In this document: piece by piece, positions 883 to 28,109 of the stretch
Layout of the letters: each line of letters starts with the position of its first letter
Position numbering within the stretch: the stretch's first letter is position 1
Position numbers and translations under genes: made by a program
Assembly: GCA_902761395.1 (NCBI GenBank)
Contig: CACWKJ010000003.1
Span: forward strand, 1 to 29,547
Length of the DNA stretch: 29,547 nucleotides
Reading direction: 5' to 3'
DNA from: an uncultured Elusimicrobium sp.
Lineage (GTDB): Bacteria > Elusimicrobiota > Endomicrobiia > Endomicrobiales > Endomicrobiaceae
Notes under the pieces: model-generated
The model's database searches: none
The model's input: only the letters and a program-made list of their open reading frames with translations
What the model was told of the DNA's origin: nothing

Positions 883-893
883 TTTAAATATCT

Positions 894-920
894 GTCATCC
901 CGTACTTGATACGGGATCTA
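894..920 (+). repeat. GTC-tagged REP-like palindrome
   Basis: GTC-ATCCCGTA-CTTGA-TACGGGAT-CTA, 11 nt after the aas stop. Confidence 0.85.
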
Positions 921-941
921 TAAAAAATGTTCTTTATATAC

Positions 942-1156
942 TTTTTAAAATTTCTCATTTTCAAGCACTAAAGCTATTCATTTGAAAATTTTAAAGCCGT
1001 GCTCCAACTTGAAAAATCCTAACAACCTAATGTAACGGATTTTTCTTTAAACATGTTCGCACTAAAAAACTTTAAGAGATTTATAGTTTTTTACTTTAAA
1101 ATTTTCTGCATTCATAGACAGCTTTAATTGTGCTTTTTAAATGAAAATTTTAAAAG
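942..1156. mobile_element. MITE-like element, copy A (~215 bp, imperfect ~26 bp terminal inverted repeats)
   Basis: Left end TTTTTAAAATTTCTCATTTTCAAGCAC, right end GTGCTTTTTAAATGAAAATTTTAAAAG. The interior is colinear with 7865-8084. Confidence 0.65.
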
Positions 1157-1276
1157 AATTATGGTATGTAAAAGATCCATTGTAGTTATGATTAAAATAC
1201 TATAATGGGTTTTAAAATATACAAAAAGATTTATAATGTATAATGTATTATACATAAAGATTAAGGAAGTTCGATT

Positions 1277-3127: not shown

Positions 3128-3136
3128 TATAGTTGT

Positions 3137-3163
3137 GTCATTCCGGACTCGATCCGGAATCTA
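3137..3163 (+). repeat. GTC-tagged REP-like palindrome
   Basis: GTC-ATTCCGGA-CTCGA-TCCGGAAT-CTA, 9 nt after the typA stop. Confidence 0.85.
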
Positions 3164-3175
3164 TGGAAAATAGTT

Positions 3176-3229
3176 CTTTTAAAATTTCTCATTTACAAGC
3201 AAAAAAGCCATTCGTTTGAAATTTTAAAA
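3176..3229. mobile_element. Short (54 bp) derivative of the MITE-like element, copy B
   Basis: 3172-3221 is identical over 50 bp to 7861-7910. It is closed by GAAATTTTAAAA, a 12 bp inverse of the left end. Confidence 0.6.
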
Positions 3230-3254
3230 AACATATTTATTGTCGTTTTAAAAA

Positions 3255-3263
3255 TGGTATAAT
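3255..3263 (+). promoter_or_regulatory. Extended -10 promoter element
   Basis: TGGTATAAT located 34 nt upstream of the 3298 ATG, with GGAG SD at about 3285. Confidence 0.45.
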
Positions 3264-7856: not shown

Positions 7857-7864
7857 AAACAGTT

Positions 7865-8084
7865 CTTTTAAAATTTCTCATTTACAAGCAAAAAAGCCAT
7901 TCGTTTGAAAATTGAAAACCAAAGGCCAACTCGCTTTTTTCTAACGACCTAATGAAACGAAAAAAGCTCAAACAATGACACATTGCCCTACGGGAAAAAA
8001 CTTGATTGATTTATAGTTTTTTGTTTTCAATTTTCTGCACTCATAGACGGCTTTAATCATGCTTGTAAACGAAAATTTTAAAAG
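7865..8084. mobile_element. MITE-like element, copy C (220 bp)
   Basis: Terminal inverted repeats CTTTTAAAATTTCTCATTTACAAGCA / TGCTTGTAAACGAAAATTTTAAAAG, with no ORF inside. Confidence 0.7.
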
Positions 8085-8087
8085 TCT

Positions 8088-8122
8088 GTCATTGCGAGGC
8101 GGTGTAACCGCCGTGGCAATCC
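8088..8122 (+). repeat. GTC-tagged palindrome, long bulged class
   Basis: GTCATTGCGA-GGCGG-TGTAA-CCGCC-GTGGCAATCC. Confidence 0.8.
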
Positions 8123-21211: not shown

Positions 21212-21215
21212 ACAA

Positions 21216-21314
21216 CAATTTATAATTTACAATGTACAATTTTTGATAAATAATTAGATTTTTTGCAAAGCGAAAAATACATTAATTATCAATTATAAAT
21301 TTTAAATTATAGAT
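21216..21314. repeat. Inverted degenerate heptamer runs flanking a small hairpin
   Basis: CAATTTA/TAATTTA/CAATGTA/CAATTTT, then TTTTTGC-AAA-GCGAAAAA, then AATTATC/AATTATA/AATTTTA/AATTATA. Confidence 0.5.
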
Positions 21315-21338
21315 TAAAAGATATGGAGTATTTGTATT

Positions 21339-22374: not shown

Positions 22375-23082
22375 ATGCAACAATTATTATTTTCTCTTTT
22401 AGCAATGTGTTCCGCACTTATAGGAACGTTTGTAGTGTTAAAATTTTCCGAATGGGCAAGAAAACATTCCATATTGTTAATAGGTTTTGCCGCAGGTGTT
22501 ATGTTATCCATAGCATTTGTTCATTTGTTGCCGGAATCGGTGGAACATAATCCCAACGCAATAATTTATGCTTTTGTCGGTTTTTTGTTTATGTTTGCAA
22601 TTCAACATTTTATATTCTTTCATCCTTGTCACGATGATCATTGTCATGTTCATTTGGGAACACTTTCCACTTTCGGTTTATCATTACATTCTTTTTTTGA
22701 CGGTATAGTTATAAGTATAGGGTTCGGAGCAAATGCTTATATAGGACTTATGACAACAATAGCAATAATGTTGCACAAGTTACCCGACGGTGTAACTATT
22801 ACGGGAATTTTGATGCATTCGAACAAATCGATAAAACAAATAATATGTTATTCGTTAACGGTAGCAACATTTACTCCTGTAGGAACACTTATAGGACTTT
22901 TCTTTTCTAACCAAATAGCACATTTAATAGGCAGTTTTTTGGCATTTACCGCAGGAACATTTATTTATTTATCTGCAGCGGATCTCATTCCGGAAACGCA
23001 TAAAGCATCCAACAAAAAAGCGGGACTCTGTTTATTGTTGGGAGTAATCATCGTTTCTTTTTTAGGTCATATCGCCCACTAA
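22375..23082 (+). CDS. ZIP family metal transporter
   Basis: AAGVML, His-rich loop HPCHDDHCHVH, LHSFFDG, LHKLPDG and AGTFIYLSAADLIPE. Confidence 0.9.
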   Translation: MQQLLFSLLAMCSALIGTFVVLKFSEWARKHSILLIGFAAGVMLSIAFVHLLPESVEHNPNAIIYAFVGFLFMFAIQHFIFFHPCHDDHCHVHLGTLSTFGLSLHSFFDGIVISIGFGANAYIGLMTTIAIMLHKLPDGVTITGILMHSNKSIKQIICYSLTVATFTPVGTLIGLFFSNQIAHLIGSFLAFTAGTFIYLSAADLIPETHKASNKKAGLCLLLGVIIVSFLGHIAH

Positions 23083-23123
23083 AAATAGTTTATAAGTTTA
23101 TAGGGTTATAAGGTTATAGGTTT

Positions 23124-23430
23124 GTCATCCCGCACGCCACCAATTGTCATCCCGCACTCGGTGCGGGCTCTTGTCGTTCGTCGTCATTCTGAACTTGATT
23201 CAGAATCTCGCCGTTCGTTGTCATTCTGAACTTGATTCAGAATCTATAAAAAAATAAAGACATGTGATAAAAAGGAATAAATATATTTGTATAGATTGCG
23301 GATCGGAGTCCGCAATGACACAAACATCGGTTTGTCATTCTGAACTTGATTCAGAATCTATAATTGCGGATCGGAGTCCGCAATGACACAAACATCGGTT
23401 TGTCATTCTGAACTTGATTCAGAATCTATA
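23124..23430. repeat. Cluster of 8 GTC-tagged palindromes (one half copy) including a 68 bp perfect tandem duplication
   Basis: Units start at 23124, 23146, 23183, 23220, 23292(-), 23334, 23363(-) and 23402. Segment 23295-23362 equals 23363-23430. Confidence 0.9.
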
Positions 23431-23452
23431 AAAAAATAAAATACCTTGTATT

Positions 23453-23743
23453 ATGAAACAATATTATGTTTATATACTATTTAGTGATAAAAACGGAACA
23501 TTATATATAGGTGTAACAAATAATTTAATAAAAAGAGTATATGAACATAAGAATGAATTTGTTAAAGGTTTTACAGAAAAATATAAAGTTAATAAATTAG
23601 GATATTTTGAAAAATATAATAGTATAGAAGAAGCAATAAAAAGAGAAAAACAATTAAAAAATTGGAAACGAGAATGGAAAGTTTCCCTTATAGAACAAAA
23701 TAATAGTGAGTGGGAAGATTTATACTATTCATTATTAGGATGA
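23453..23743 (+). CDS. Small stand-alone GIY-YIG nuclease (UPF0213/YhbQ-like)
   Basis: YYVYIL, GTLYIGVT, LIKRVYEHK, AIKREKQLKNWKREWK and NSEWEDLY. Confidence 0.92.
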   Translation: MKQYYVYILFSDKNGTLYIGVTNNLIKRVYEHKNEFVKGFTEKYKVNKLGYFEKYNSIEEAIKREKQLKNWKREWKVSLIEQNNSEWEDLYYSLLG

Positions 23744-23757
23744 AATTTATTGTTTTA

Positions 23758-23785
23758 TAGATTCCGTGTCGCAGCACGGAATGAC
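23758..23785 (-). repeat. GTC-tagged REP-like palindrome downstream of the GIY-YIG gene
   Basis: Reverse complement is GTC-ATTCCGTG-CTGCGA-CACGGAAT-CTA, identical to 28082-28109. Confidence 0.85.
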
Positions 23786-23887
23786 ATCTCAATATCATAA
23801 ACTTATACTCAATTTTATTTTGTAAAATTTAGTATAATCTGTGGTTAGTATAATATTAAAATGTTTTTATAAGAAGGTATAAAAATC

Positions 23888-26776
23888 ATGAAAAAATTAA
23901 AAATTTTGTTGTTTTCATTAGCAGGTTTAATTGTAGTTTTATCCATTGCTGCGGTTATAGCAATAAAAGTATTTTTGCCGGAAGATAAAATAAAATCTTA
24001 CATTACAGATTATGCTAAAAATAATCTTAACAGAGAAGTCACTTTCGACAAACTTTCAATTAAGTTTATAGGTATAGATTTAAAGAACTTTAAAATGTCG
24101 GAAAAATCCACACTTAACGACGGAACATTTATAAAAGCGGACGATTTTATAGTAAAAGTATCGCCGCTTCCGTTACTTAAGAAAAACATTAAAATCAGCA
24201 GAATCTTGTTGGATTCAATAGATATAAACATAACAAAAGATGAAAACGGTCTTTTCAATTTTGACGATATAATAAAATCGTTCCAAAGCGAACAGCCTCA
24301 ACAGGAACAAAAGAAGGAACAAGTTTCCGATACAAAAAGTTCGTCAAGTTCGTTCGATTTAAACATACATCGTTTCGATATAAAAAATGCAAACATAATT
24401 TATATAGATAAAACATCTAATTTAGAGGCAAGTATTAAAAACTTTAACTTAAAAACAAAAGATTTTTCGCTTACGGATATGTTCGGTTGTGAAACTTCTT
24501 TCGATTTGGCGGTTAAACAAAATAAACTCGATATTTCCTTACCGTTAAGAGCAAATTTTAAAACGAATTTGAACAATTTCGATATGGATAAGATGTATTT
24601 GGATGTTGAAACTTTTGAAACAAACTTTAATAATGCAACAATAAGTTTGCAGGGTAAAATAGAAAATATAAATGCTCCCAAAATAGATTGTAACCTTATA
24701 TTGAAAAATATAGATGAACAAACTTTTAAAGATTTCTTCGACTGTAAAACCAAATTTAAAGCGGATGAAATAACATTTAAAACAAAATCGTCGGTAAACA
24801 TTTCTTCAATGAATGCGGATATTGAAAGTTTAAGTTTGGTGTTGCCGAACTCAACCGCGGATTTGGTTGGAACGATAGATTGGGGAAAACAGGATGTGGA
24901 ATATAATTTAAAACTTAATCTCGATTTACTTATAGATAATTTTGCAAAACTTGTTCCGGAATACAATTTAACGGGAAGATTAAAAACAAATTTGGAAGCA
25001 ACTCAAAATTTTTGTGAAGGAACATTTGCTTTTGAAAACATTTCTTCCGATTCAAGTTTCGGTAAAGTTTCAAACTTAAATGCAGATCTTTATTTGAAAG
25101 CGGAAAACGGTTCACCGTTATACAAAGCAGACTTTTCCACACTCGGTATAGATTCTCTTGCTTTCAATATTAAACAGTTATCTTTAAAGTATAACGATGC
25201 AGACATTTCTTTGACGGGGGAACTTACAAAACAGTTAAGATCCGCACTTACATTAAACTTAAAATCTAAAAATATTACAAACAACACATTTAAGAATTTT
25301 TATAAATGTCCCGTAAAATTCATAGTTCCTACATTGGATATCGACACAATTTTAAGTTTTAACTTAAATACCAAAGCGGCGGACATAACAAAATTAAATA
25401 TAAGAATTCCGGATTCTTCCGCAAATGTTACCGGCTTGCTTAACTGGAAAAAGCAAAACAATTTTATTTACAACTTATCTTTAAATCTTAACTTGTTGTT
25501 GGATAACATTGCAAAAAATTTCCCGGAATATAAAATGAAAGGTAAAATTGTTTCCGATGCCAAAGTTTCAAACAACGATTTTTCAGGTAACTTAACTTGT
25601 TCAAATGTTGCATTCGAATATTTGCCGTTGGCCGCAATATCAAAATTTAATATAGATGCAACGGCAAAGTCCAAAAAGAACATAGTAATAAAAACAATTA
25701 ACGGTATATTTAACGAAGGCAAATTTGAAGGTAACGGCTCTTTAATAAACAAAGATATTAAATTTAACTTTAATATGGATAAATTAAAAATTTCCGAAAG
25801 TTCACAAAGTTCCAAACAGCAACCTAAAAAAGAAGAAAAGAAATCGTCGTCATCTACACAGGATTTTAATTACAATATTTATACCGATATATCAATTAAC
25901 GATATAAATACACCTTACCTGGTAACAAAAAAAGCCGCACTGAAAACCGCACTTACAAGCGTAACAAGCACATGCAACAAGGCTAACGGAACTTTTGTTT
26001 TCAATATGGATGCCGGAACAATATCCAATGTTAACAAATTAACAGATAACAAAATGGCAAACACTTTCTTATCTTTGTTTAATGTTGTAAACAATAACAG
26101 AACCAAAGAAACAAAAGGTAACAGCAAAAACGATATAAGTTTTCAAAATATTATTTGCGATGTGTTGCTTACCGACGGTTTAATAAAAACAAACGATGTT
26201 TCAATAAAAATTCCTACAGCAAAAATTATTGCTAAAGGTACAATAAATTTAAAAAATGAAGCATTAAAACTTGCCGTAACCGCCGGCGATTATACGGGAA
26301 TGAAAATTGAAGGAACAATGTCCAACCCGAAAATTTCTTACGATGTTGCTGCAGCGGTGGCAACCGCTTTAGGAGACAAATCCGTAGGTGATGCTTTAAA
26401 AAGTTTATTTAAAATGGATAACAAAAAAGAAAGTTCCAAAAAAGAATCCAATCAGGAAGTAAAACAGGAAACTGCACAGGAAAATACACAACCGGCAACA
26501 CAGGAAGAACCCAAACAGGAAACTGTAACACAGCAGGAAACAACCGAACCGGTTAAACAGGAAACATCAACAGTGCAGGAAGAACAAAAGCAGGAAACCG
26601 TTCAGGAAACAAAACAGGAACCTGTACAAGAAGTTAAACAGGAAGAAACAAATACACAAGAAACCGTAAAGGAAGAACCTAAACAGGAAACTGTCCAGGA
26701 AACACCGCAGGAAACAAAACAGGAAGAACCTAAGTCGGAAGAACCAAACGCAGAAGGAACTACCGAAGGGGAATAA
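23888..26776 (+). CDS. AsmA-family (repeating beta-groove) protein with low-complexity Q/E/T tail
   Basis: N-terminal TM anchor, AsmA-like N-domain (VSPLPLLKKNIKISRILL, NGLFNFDDI), C-terminal AKGTINL...GTMSNPK and KQET repeats. Confidence 0.85.
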   Translation: MKKLKILLFSLAGLIVVLSIAAVIAIKVFLPEDKIKSYITDYAKNNLNREVTFDKLSIKFIGIDLKNFKMSEKSTLNDGTFIKADDFIVKVSPLPLLKKNIKISRILLDSIDINITKDENGLFNFDDIIKSFQSEQPQQEQKKEQVSDTKSSSSSFDLNIHRFDIKNANIIYIDKTSNLEASIKNFNLKTKDFSLTDMFGCETSFDLAVKQNKLDISLPLRANFKTNLNNFDMDKMYLDVETFETNFNNATISLQGKIENINAPKIDCNLILKNIDEQTFKDFFDCKTKFKADEITFKTKSSVNISSMNADIESLSLVLPNSTADLVGTIDWGKQDVEYNLKLNLDLLIDNFAKLVPEYNLTGRLKTNLEATQNFCEGTFAFENISSDSSFGKVSNLNADLYLKAENGSPLYKADFSTLGIDSLAFNIKQLSLKYNDADISLTGELTKQLRSALTLNLKSKNITNNTFKNFYKCPVKFIVPTLDIDTILSFNLNTKAADITKLNIRIPDSSANVTGLLNWKKQNNFIYNLSLNLNLLLDNIAKNFPEYKMKGKIVSDAKVSNNDFSGNLTCSNVAFEYLPLAAISKFNIDATAKSKKNIVIKTINGIFNEGKFEGNGSLINKDIKFNFNMDKLKISESSQSSKQQPKKEEKKSSSSTQDFNYNIYTDISINDINTPYLVTKKAALKTALTSVTSTCNKANGTFVFNMDAGTISNVNKLTDNKMANTFLSLFNVVNNNRTKETKGNSKNDISFQNIICDVLLTDGLIKTNDVSIKIPTAKIIAKGTINLKNEALKLAVTAGDYTGMKIEGTMSNPKISYDVAAAVATALGDKSVGDALKSLFKMDNKKESSKKESNQEVKQETAQENTQPATQEEPKQETVTQQETTEPVKQETSTVQEEQKQETVQETKQEPVQEVKQEETNTQETVKEEPKQETVQETPQETKQEEPKSEEPNAEGTTEGE

Positions 26777-26794
26777 GAATTAATGTACAATGAA

Positions 26795-26848
26795 GGTGTC
26801 CTGCGGACTGATTTTTTATAGATTCCGTGTCGAGCACGGAATGACACC
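26795..26848. repeat. Degenerate half palindrome plus minus-strand GTC-tagged palindrome
   Basis: GGTGTC...GACACC bounds the region. 26819-26845 reverse complement is GTC-ATTCCGTG-CTCGA-CACGGAAT-CTA. Confidence 0.75.
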
Positions 26849-27964: not shown

Positions 27965-28109
27965 GTCGTTGCGGACTTGATCCGCAATCTATCCGAATAT
28001 TTTTTCTGTTATTCGGTGTGCCTACGGCACTAATTTTTTATAGATTCTGAATCAAGTTCAGAATAACAACTTGTTTTTAGTGTCATTCCGTGCTGCGACA
28101 CGGAATCTA
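27965..28109. repeat. Cluster of three GTC-tagged palindromes between co-oriented genes
   Basis: 27965-27991(+), 28041-28067(-) and 28082-28109(+), plus a GTGCC-TAC-GGCAC mini-hairpin. Confidence 0.85.

Follow-up and report, generated by a model that had tools for sequence, protein, structure and literature searches.

What is a small nuclease gene doing in the midst of a cluster of hairpin repeats, and is the encoded enzyme matched to the repeats that surround it? The question is raised by a stretch of 29,547 nucleotides from an uncultured Elusimicrobium sp. (hereafter the window), which is contig C3 of a 1.41-Mb, 236-contig, 89%-complete metagenome-assembled genome, here coded G000, whose sequence is also present in bovine, sheep and other gut metagenomes as judged by metagenome search. 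Judged by the homologues of its pyruvate kinase, the organism belongs to Endomicrobiaceae in the phylum Elusimicrobiota. A ZIP-family transporter gene (22375-23082) is separated from an AsmA-like gene (23888-26776) by an 805-bp spacer that contains a gene for a 96-amino-acid GIY-YIG protein, referred to below as ssn, together with palindromes that carry an unpaired GTC tag. We propose that this locus is, with high probability, an Ssn/SRM (Ssn-related motif) cassette, in which a putative single-strand nuclease is flanked by its cognate hairpins with their tags pointing outward.

The Ssn family was described by Chenal et al. (Nat Commun 2025) as single-domain GIY-YIG proteins (CDD cd10448), of which the 94-amino-acid SsnA of Neisseria meningitidis (NMB0047/NMV_0044) is an endonuclease acting only on single-stranded DNA (ssDNA) and encoded in an NTS-ssnA-NTS architecture that the authors likened to an insertion sequence (PMC11893778). 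The 28-nt hairpin repeat, named NTS, or SRM in its degenerate form, is bound solely as ssDNA and cleavage falls a few nucleotides 5′ of it; the GTC before the palindrome governs cleavage, the C just 3′ of the palindrome is the foremost base for binding, and cutting is abolished by the Y6A, Y17A and E64A substitutions (PMC11893778). SRMs were found near 71% of Ssn homologues, and the pairing of enzyme and repeat was demonstrated biochemically for four of them (PMC11893778). As the gene-repeat pairing was thus published in 2025 as Ssn/NTS, the discovery itself is not new, and what the window adds is an instance in Endomicrobiaceae; by the same token, the view taken in the first-pass annotation of this DNA, that no mechanism was established for such an arrangement, is outdated, both the system and its biochemical mechanism being in print (PMC11893778).

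The protein carries much of this assignment. Its frame runs from an ATG at 23453 to a TGA at 23743 and, as had been noted at first pass, encodes a GIY-YIG domain (Pfam PF01541, residues 3-76, E 2.6e-15). The published homology criterion for the family is E < 1e-10 to N. meningitidis SsnA (PMC11893778); using the N. gonorrhoeae orthologue in place of the latter, BLASTP aligns the window protein at 49% identity over 93 amino acids without gaps (E 7e-38), and places Y7, Y18 and E65 in register with Y6, Y17 and E64. This Tyr/Tyr/Glu catalytic set is invariant across 29 homologues. The AlphaFold model (pLDDT 95.3) is a single compact domain with the GIY-YIG fold, whose nearest solved neighbors are UPF0213 proteins, Slx1 and the UvrC N-terminal domain; neither sequence nor fold search with the window protein returned a close relative of solved structure, and an NCBIfam scan gave only a weak, below-cut-off match to a group I intron endonuclease. 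The gonococcal comparison protein is a 94-amino-acid open reading frame with 12 NTS copies within 600 bp on either side; its source is PLSDB record NZ_CP119140.1, a 2.17-Mb, almost unannotated N. gonorrhoeae chromosome filed as a plasmid. In four genomes rich in DNA uptake sequence we counted 1-57 NTS copies and did not find ssn, the sole small GIY-YIG protein there being of the UPF0213 type and 26% identical to the window protein.

The single ssn copy of G000 is poor in G+C, with 48 of 240 positions (20%) in 23461-23700, exactly as first counted, and 21.3% over the whole gene, against 32.6% for the genome. Around it, and elsewhere in the window, the following features can be distinguished.

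23083 to 23121, forward strand: tandem array of octamers of the TTATARGN type, the apparent target site, which holds the left arm of an 11-bp inverted repeat and is also present in the cassette-free alleles of the relatives G001, G002 and G003
23122 to 23143, forward strand: shortened repeat copy (tag and 5′ stem half) at the outermost left end of the inserted block, read from the sequence; homology to the cassette-free G001 allele stops at 23121
23146 to 23169, 23183 to 23206 and 23220 to 23243, forward strand: three tandem SRM/REP hairpins in the same orientation with 13-nt spacers, from the hairpin search
23295 to 23430, both strands: two exact 68-bp tandem units, from the repeat search (100% identity)
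23402 to 23442, forward strand: gene-proximal hairpin with a promoter-like site (9 of 12 matches in a consensus scan)
23453 to 23743, forward strand: ssn, 96-amino-acid single-domain GIY-YIG nuclease of the Ssn family, assigned by Pfam, SsnA homology and the AlphaFold model
23757 to 23785, reverse strand: inverted SRM/REP hairpin, tag outward, near the right end of the inserted block, from the hairpin search
23797 to 23807, forward strand: right arm of the 11-bp inverted repeat, of marginal significance
894 to 917, forward strand: dispersed hairpin copy, the sole one in the window to fit the published SRM pattern
3137 to 3160, forward strand: dispersed hairpin copy, from the hairpin search
26822 to 26845, reverse strand: dispersed hairpin copy, from the hairpin search
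28082 to 28106, forward strand: dispersed hairpin copy, identical by sequence comparison to the copy downstream of ssn, including the tail

Both sides of ssn therefore carry hairpins, a forward copy ending 27 nt before the ATG and an inverted one following the stop codon. The eight upstream palindromes of the first-pass annotation resolve into seven complete copies (forward at 23146, 23183, 23220, 23334 and 23402; inverted at 23295 and 23363) and the truncated one at the left end, which together (23122-23425) form the largest repeat cluster in G000. Each 68-bp unit consists of an inverted copy (23295-23319 and 23363-23387) and a forward copy (23334-23357 and 23402-23425) whose tags face each other across a 14-nt spacer, and the same heterodimer is found again on contigs C5, C35, C78 and C116. 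The downstream hairpin, originally placed 14 nt past the gene, consists of a core (23761-23785) and a tail extending out to 23757, and hence begins 13-17 nt beyond the stop codon; its junction, GAATGAC followed by ATCTC, is conserved in the relative G006. Its reported identity to the 28082 copy holds, as does the scatter of the family across the window. A terminator scan at the ssn locus found nothing. A promoter-like arrangement lies 10 nt before the ATG (23414-23442), TTGATT from the hairpin loop and 3′ stem being followed after 17 nt by TAAAAT, and an 85%-identical ssn in the relative G001 is preceded by a like arrangement (TTGATC-17-TAAAAT, L083:1461-1489). The gene-proximal repeat may thus supply the −35 box of the ssn promoter.

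The motif recurs throughout the genome: GTC followed by an AT-stem hairpin and C occurs 75 times in the assembly versus 2.5 times in dinucleotide-preserving shuffles, and 72 of the 75 copies lie outside long open frames, though such sequence makes up about 8% of the genome. A copy is laid out as (T)GTC, an 8-bp stem starting with AT(T/C), a loop of 5-6 nt (CTTGA, CTCGA, CTCCGA or CTGCGA), the complementary stem, C and mostly TAT, with the TGTC tag present in 72 and the CTAT tail in 60 of the 75; the positions that never vary are GTC, the AT that opens the stem, the G at its position 6 and the 3′ C. At least six stem variants, among them ATTCTGAA, ATTGCGGA, ATTCCGTG, ATTCCGGA and ATCCCGCA, coexist with the one ssn gene, and all are fully compensated. 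Folded as ssDNA, the copies form hairpins of −5.6 to −8.2 kcal/mol (z −2.8 to −4.7) in which neither tag nor tail is paired. By grouping, 43 are single, 10 in pairs and 2 in triplets, and the one large cluster is that before ssn; among 19 adjacent pairs, tandem same-orientation ones are commonest (9, with spacers of 11-14 nt), followed by 6 head-to-head, where heterodimers of the ATTCTGAA and ATTGCGGA variants have 12-14-nt spacers, and 4 tail-to-tail, where doublets are spaced by 51-54 nt. The published degenerate SRM pattern matches 14 times in G000 (0.6 in shuffles), and 13 of these matches are ATCCCG-stem variants, the commoner variants combining AT-rich stems with a CTAT tail; since the pattern misses most of the AT-rich copies, surveys based on it undercount such systems. 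The reported functional determinants, namely the GTC tag, the palindrome and the 3′ C, are all found in the G000 repeats. GTC-tagged palindromes of a second class, longer and with a GC-rich inner stem (GTCATTGCGAGCG.AGCGTGGCAAT), were seen at C20:2114-2138 and C82:3189-3213; they stand nearer to the NTS-like repeats of other phyla, and the first-pass list adds window positions 8088 and 19524.

The association of gene and repeat extends well beyond this genome. The window protein has thousands of homologues, the best 120 matches being 62-100% identical, and those that are named span different phyla, many of them on very short contigs. We surveyed 80 loci in species-representative genomes from more than 10 phyla, the taxa including alpha-, beta-, gamma- and delta-proteobacteria, Saccharibacteria, Planctomycetota, Cyanobacteria, Flavobacteriia, Chloroflexota, Nitrospirota and Omnitrophota. 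Tagged hairpins reach 2.06 per kb within 300 bp of the gene versus 0.076 per kb in the other 1.05 Mb of flanks, the 27-fold enrichment bearing out the flank bias that had been proposed for homologues of this frame. At least one hairpin is nearby in 62 of the 80 loci and both sides are occupied in 47, while 35 show the forward copy/gene/inverted copy layout, with the forward copy about 23 nt upstream and the inverted one about 19 nt downstream. Four exact Neisseria-type NTS surround a 57%-identical homologue from Tepidisphaeraceae, and that genome has no others. Protein and repeat also appear to co-vary, as the first-pass annotation had suggested might be tested: on a poorly resolved tree of 83 proteins the repeat class changes 7 times where shuffling gives 10.25 on average, and 9 of 2000 shuffles reach so low a count, which lends the idea modest support. 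In three aligned homologues (P0012, P0032 and P0092) the protein ends in tails such as LDSGSSPE, which back-translate, done manually, to the inverted repeat, so that the repeat appears to abut the gene there; such tails may be an annotation artefact or a genuine repeat-encoded extension.

By homology to SsnA, the window protein would bind the repeat solely when single-stranded and folded as a hairpin, reading the palindrome and the C just 3′ of it, whereas cutting would read the GTC tag. The tagged strand, when single-stranded, would be hydrolysed a few nucleotides 5′ of GTC; in the cassette, the cut positions would fall just beyond each end and on opposite strands, and the approximately 75 copies, nearly all extragenic, would serve as dispersed target sites in G000. 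The earlier idea that the GIY-YIG protein is the cognate hairpin-recognising nuclease of the family is upheld in this form by SsnA homology, by the 62 of 80 loci and by the lack of a Y1 transposase, while its further role as mobiliser is a hypothesis only.

Several observations weigh against the assignment. The published SRM pattern fits only 14 of the approximately 75 copies and none of those flanking ssn. Six or more stem variants share one ssn gene, whereas N. meningitidis SsnA is inactive on an altered stem even when the hairpin is retained (PMC11893778); we infer both the ssDNA-specific cutting by the window protein and its recognition of all these variants. Furthermore, the closest relative, G003, has 86 repeats and no detected ssn, its sole GIY-YIG match being a 436-amino-acid frame of UvrC length, and two ssn-bearing relatives have zero copies of the G000 repeat variant. 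As to distribution within the genus, 5 of the 13 relatives yielded no ssn, although four of the five are 97-100% complete by marker genes, and other members carry an ssn only 63-69% identical to that of the window. The wider family speaks for the assignment: outside the genus, three genomes combine an Ssn match (E 1e-29 or better) with repeats (4-46 copies), and 0-1 copies are present in the remaining genomes, one of which has an Ssn pseudogene and no other ssn.

Presence and absence at the locus itself can be followed among relatives, ordered here with the amino acid identity of pyruvate kinase to that of G000.

G000: ZIP-AsmA site occupied, 805-bp spacer; ssn present
G006, pyruvate kinase 94.8%: site occupied, on two contigs that break in repeats; ssn 94.6% identical
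G003, the closest relative, pyruvate kinase 98.5%: site empty, 134-bp spacer; no ssn detected
G001, pyruvate kinase 96%: site empty, 173-bp spacer; ssn 85% identical, at another site
G002, pyruvate kinase 88.7%: site empty, 145-bp spacer; no ssn detected

The empty-site alleles that the first-pass annotation thought worth seeking thus exist in G003, G001 and G002, and their ZIP-AsmA spacers contain neither repeat nor gene. The G001 orthologue follows a tRNA-Ser gene and lies between a forward and an inverted repeat, and the tRNA-Ser junction in G002, compared because the flanking genes are missing from the incomplete G000 assembly, is without the cassette, so that within the genus the cassette is polymorphic at two chromosomal sites. 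Aligned with the empty allele of G001, G000 is homologous up to 23121, immediately ahead of the first GTC, and again, weakly, from about 23797, roughly 11 nt beyond the tag of the downstream copy (23785); judged from this alignment, the left cassette border is the outer GTC tag and the right border is less exact. Among contigs of four metagenomes compared with the locus, one (run X2) joins 23083 to 23882, skipping 798 nt; an empty allele could account for it, whether borne by a co-occurring strain or by a relative, the 90% likeness leaving room for the latter. Elsewhere in the window, comparison of G000 with G003:C27 and G006:C56 (L108-L111) reveals spacers replaced wholesale between flanking coding sequences that are 93-100% identical (window 885-1194, 3128-3260 and 21213-21338), as hypervariable cassettes of differing repeat types; because whole spacers differ between G000, G003 and G006, aligning their orthologous spacers yielded no insertion footprint for single repeats. 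A MITE-like element of about 215 bp (942-1156 and 7862-8088) is multi-copy in the relatives, G003 giving 10 or more matches (84-88% identical) while several more come from G006 and G001.

The 11-bp inverted repeat (23091-23101 and 23797-23807) was initially taken to bound the whole unit. It exists, and we reject it as the unit's terminus: an inverted repeat of 11 bp is reached by 7 of 2000 shuffles and by 1.5% of real AT-rich segment pairs, the genome holds 14 copies of the 11-mer, close to the roughly 9 estimated from base composition, and the octamer element to which it belongs is found both in alleles that lack the cassette and at a G001 locus of no relation to this one. TTATARGN octamers follow the ZIP stop codon in the empty alleles as well, those in the empty allele of G001 form a separate 11-bp inverted repeat whose arms lie 25 nt apart, and the 43-nt stretch 23081-23123 recurs with 100% identity after an unrelated gene in G001. 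Since the empty alleles possess the octamers, and that of G001 an inverted repeat as well, the cassette appears to lie within a pre-existing palindromic spacer element, and the right arm is probably a remnant of the target site's inverted octamer array. Many genes of the genus are followed by 8-nt tandem arrays of the TTATAAGG, TTTACAAT or GATTAGAG types, and beyond a short spacer or a terminator-like hairpin these octamers return in inverted orientation; sites are window 23083-23121, 21213-21330 and 3128-3260, the L094, L093 and L096 spacers, and L083:1186-1262.

What, then, maintains the cassette and its repeats? The polymorphism data lean towards mobility, with recombination as an alternative, and one account, compatible with the Ssn assignment and in our estimate possible rather than probable, makes the repeat-ssn-repeat unit an autonomous selfish mobile element of which single repeats and doublets are non-autonomous derivatives. 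Ssn would nick extruded or replicating ssDNA just outside the outward tags, and, since GIY-YIG enzymes only hydrolyse, host replication and repair would complete excision and copying. The occupied and empty ZIP-AsmA sites with a left border at the outer tag speak for such movement, as do the 85%-identical G001 orthologue after tRNA-Ser with its empty counterpart in G002, within-genus ssn lineages that at 63-69% identity are no closer to one another than to homologues from other phyla, the low G+C of the gene (21% versus 33% for the genome), the many homologues on very short contigs, and a repeat family without an associated RAYT. So does a gene-less doublet on contig C188, which joins a forward ATTCTGAA to an inverted ATTCCGTG copy, the same two variants that bracket ssn, 51 nt apart versus 335 nt in the cassette, and which has like contigs in three other metagenomes; about 15 nt of its spacer clearly match the cassette, making an origin by internal deletion plausible, though not shown. 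Against this stand the failure to see either a target-site duplication or an excision junction, the fact that hydrolytic GIY-YIG nucleases have no known strand-transfer activity, and the retention of 86 repeats in G003 without ssn; moreover, as spacers are swapped wholesale between close relatives, recombination rather than transposition may explain the "empty" alleles. The authors of the Ssn study likewise raised mobility of the cassettes as a hypothesis only (PMC11893778).

A domesticated role, of the kind proposed for Neisseria and in our estimate likewise possible rather than probable, would have Ssn cut incoming or exposed ssDNA next to host-maintained repeats, shortening homology tracts and thereby modulating recombination and transformation near genes that the repeats flank. 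Transformation assays in N. meningitidis point in this direction (PMC11893778), as do the ComEC-type competence channel found in 13 of 13 genus relatives, the presence here of one ssn per genome and the almost exclusively extragenic position of the repeats; the patchy distribution of ssn, which was not found in 5 of the 13, argues against an essential host function, and ComEC was not found in G000, an incomplete assembly. The notion that the repeats were spread by some other enzyme, or are terminator or RNA elements near which a GIY-YIG gene happened to land, could draw on the ssn spacer holding the largest repeat cluster of G000, as an insertion hot spot would, and on the repeats of G003 that lack an ssn. 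It is effectively refuted by the 27-fold enrichment in 80 loci from many phyla with a conserved orientation of forward copy, gene and inverted copy, together with the pairing shown biochemically for four homologues (PMC11893778), and the terminator scan at the locus was negative.

Among known systems, UPF0213/YhbQ-like proteins (PDB 1ZG2 and 1YWL) share the size and fold of the window protein and only 26-28% of its residues, and the UPF0213 example from an uptake-sequence-rich genome had no adjacent NTS among the matches listed. A GIY-YIG homing endonuclease of the I-TevI type was rejected, the window protein being a single domain without a separate DNA-binding domain; as for phage carriage of the protein, no match was found in 50,697 phage records. 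The REP/REPIN-RAYT systems offer a closer architectural parallel, a single-copy gene flanked by inverted copies of a dispersed extragenic hairpin that is recognised as ssDNA, but their tag is GTAG rather than GTC and their enzyme an HUH tyrosine transposase with a covalent intermediate rather than a hydrolytic GIY-YIG nuclease. The absence of a RAYT from the window, noted at first pass, extends to the whole assembly: PF01797 (Y1_Tnp) has no match in G000 (89% complete), G001, G003, G009 or G012. We discarded a RAYT as mobiliser because no Y1 transposase is associated with the repeats, nor a RAYT flanked by them, in G000 or the relatives examined. The sole Y1 transposase of G006 is of the IS200/IS605 type and sits on a 2.2-kb contig (C8:1640-2002, L107) with no GTC-tagged repeats nearby.

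The likeness to Neisseria dRS3 and Rickettsia palindromic elements pointed out in the first-pass annotation leads to a common superfamily, the CGTC-tagged REPs of Di Nocera et al. (2013), which takes in dRS3 and RPE-4/RPE-6 and is defined by a CGTC/TGTC tag, 8-9-bp stems starting with AT, 4-5-nt loops and a short tail (PMC3733652). These REPs were explicitly reported as lacking a dedicated transposase, and a GIY-YIG partner was not identified (PMC3733652); the 2025 Ssn paper (PMC11893778) does not cite that study. The window repeats resemble them in the unpaired (C/T)GTC tag, the stem length with A-T at stem positions 1-2, a short unpaired tail, the extragenic location, the dimers and the lack of a transposase, and depart from them in the CTA tail (published CCA), the loop of 5-6 instead of 4-5 nt and the predominance of tandem same-orientation pairs. 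On these sequence features, Ssn motifs are the same thing as the CGTC/TGTC-tagged REPs. It is tempting, if at present more speculative than probable, to go further and see in Ssn the long-missing mobiliser of the entire superfamily, dRS3 and RPE-4/6 among its members, the cassette being an ssDNA-borne mobile element that ends at its outward GTC tags and the single repeats and gene-less doublets its non-autonomous offspring; if true, a hydrolytic GIY-YIG nuclease would be the functional counterpart of the RAYT transposases.

With the Ssn NTS/SRM systems themselves, finally, the window shares a single GIY-YIG domain of about 95 amino acids with the same catalytic Tyr/Tyr/Glu, and repeats on both sides with outward tags, GTC, an AT-starting stem, a C after the palindrome and dozens of dispersed copies. 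The repeat differs from NTS in its AT-rich 8-bp stem, CTTGA-type loop and CTAT tail, where NTS have GCG(M)A(V)GC and CYRG, and the host is an Endomicrobiaceae (Elusimicrobiota) gut bacterium, the string "Elusimicrob" being absent from the main text of PMC11893778. The present instance thereby extends Ssn/SRM pairs to ruminant-gut Endomicrobiaceae and explicitly connects the Ssn motifs with the CGTC-tagged REPs, an "orphan" superfamily described in 2013, while the occupied and empty alleles at two sites in one genus provide material for the question of cassette movement that the authors of PMC11893778 left open.

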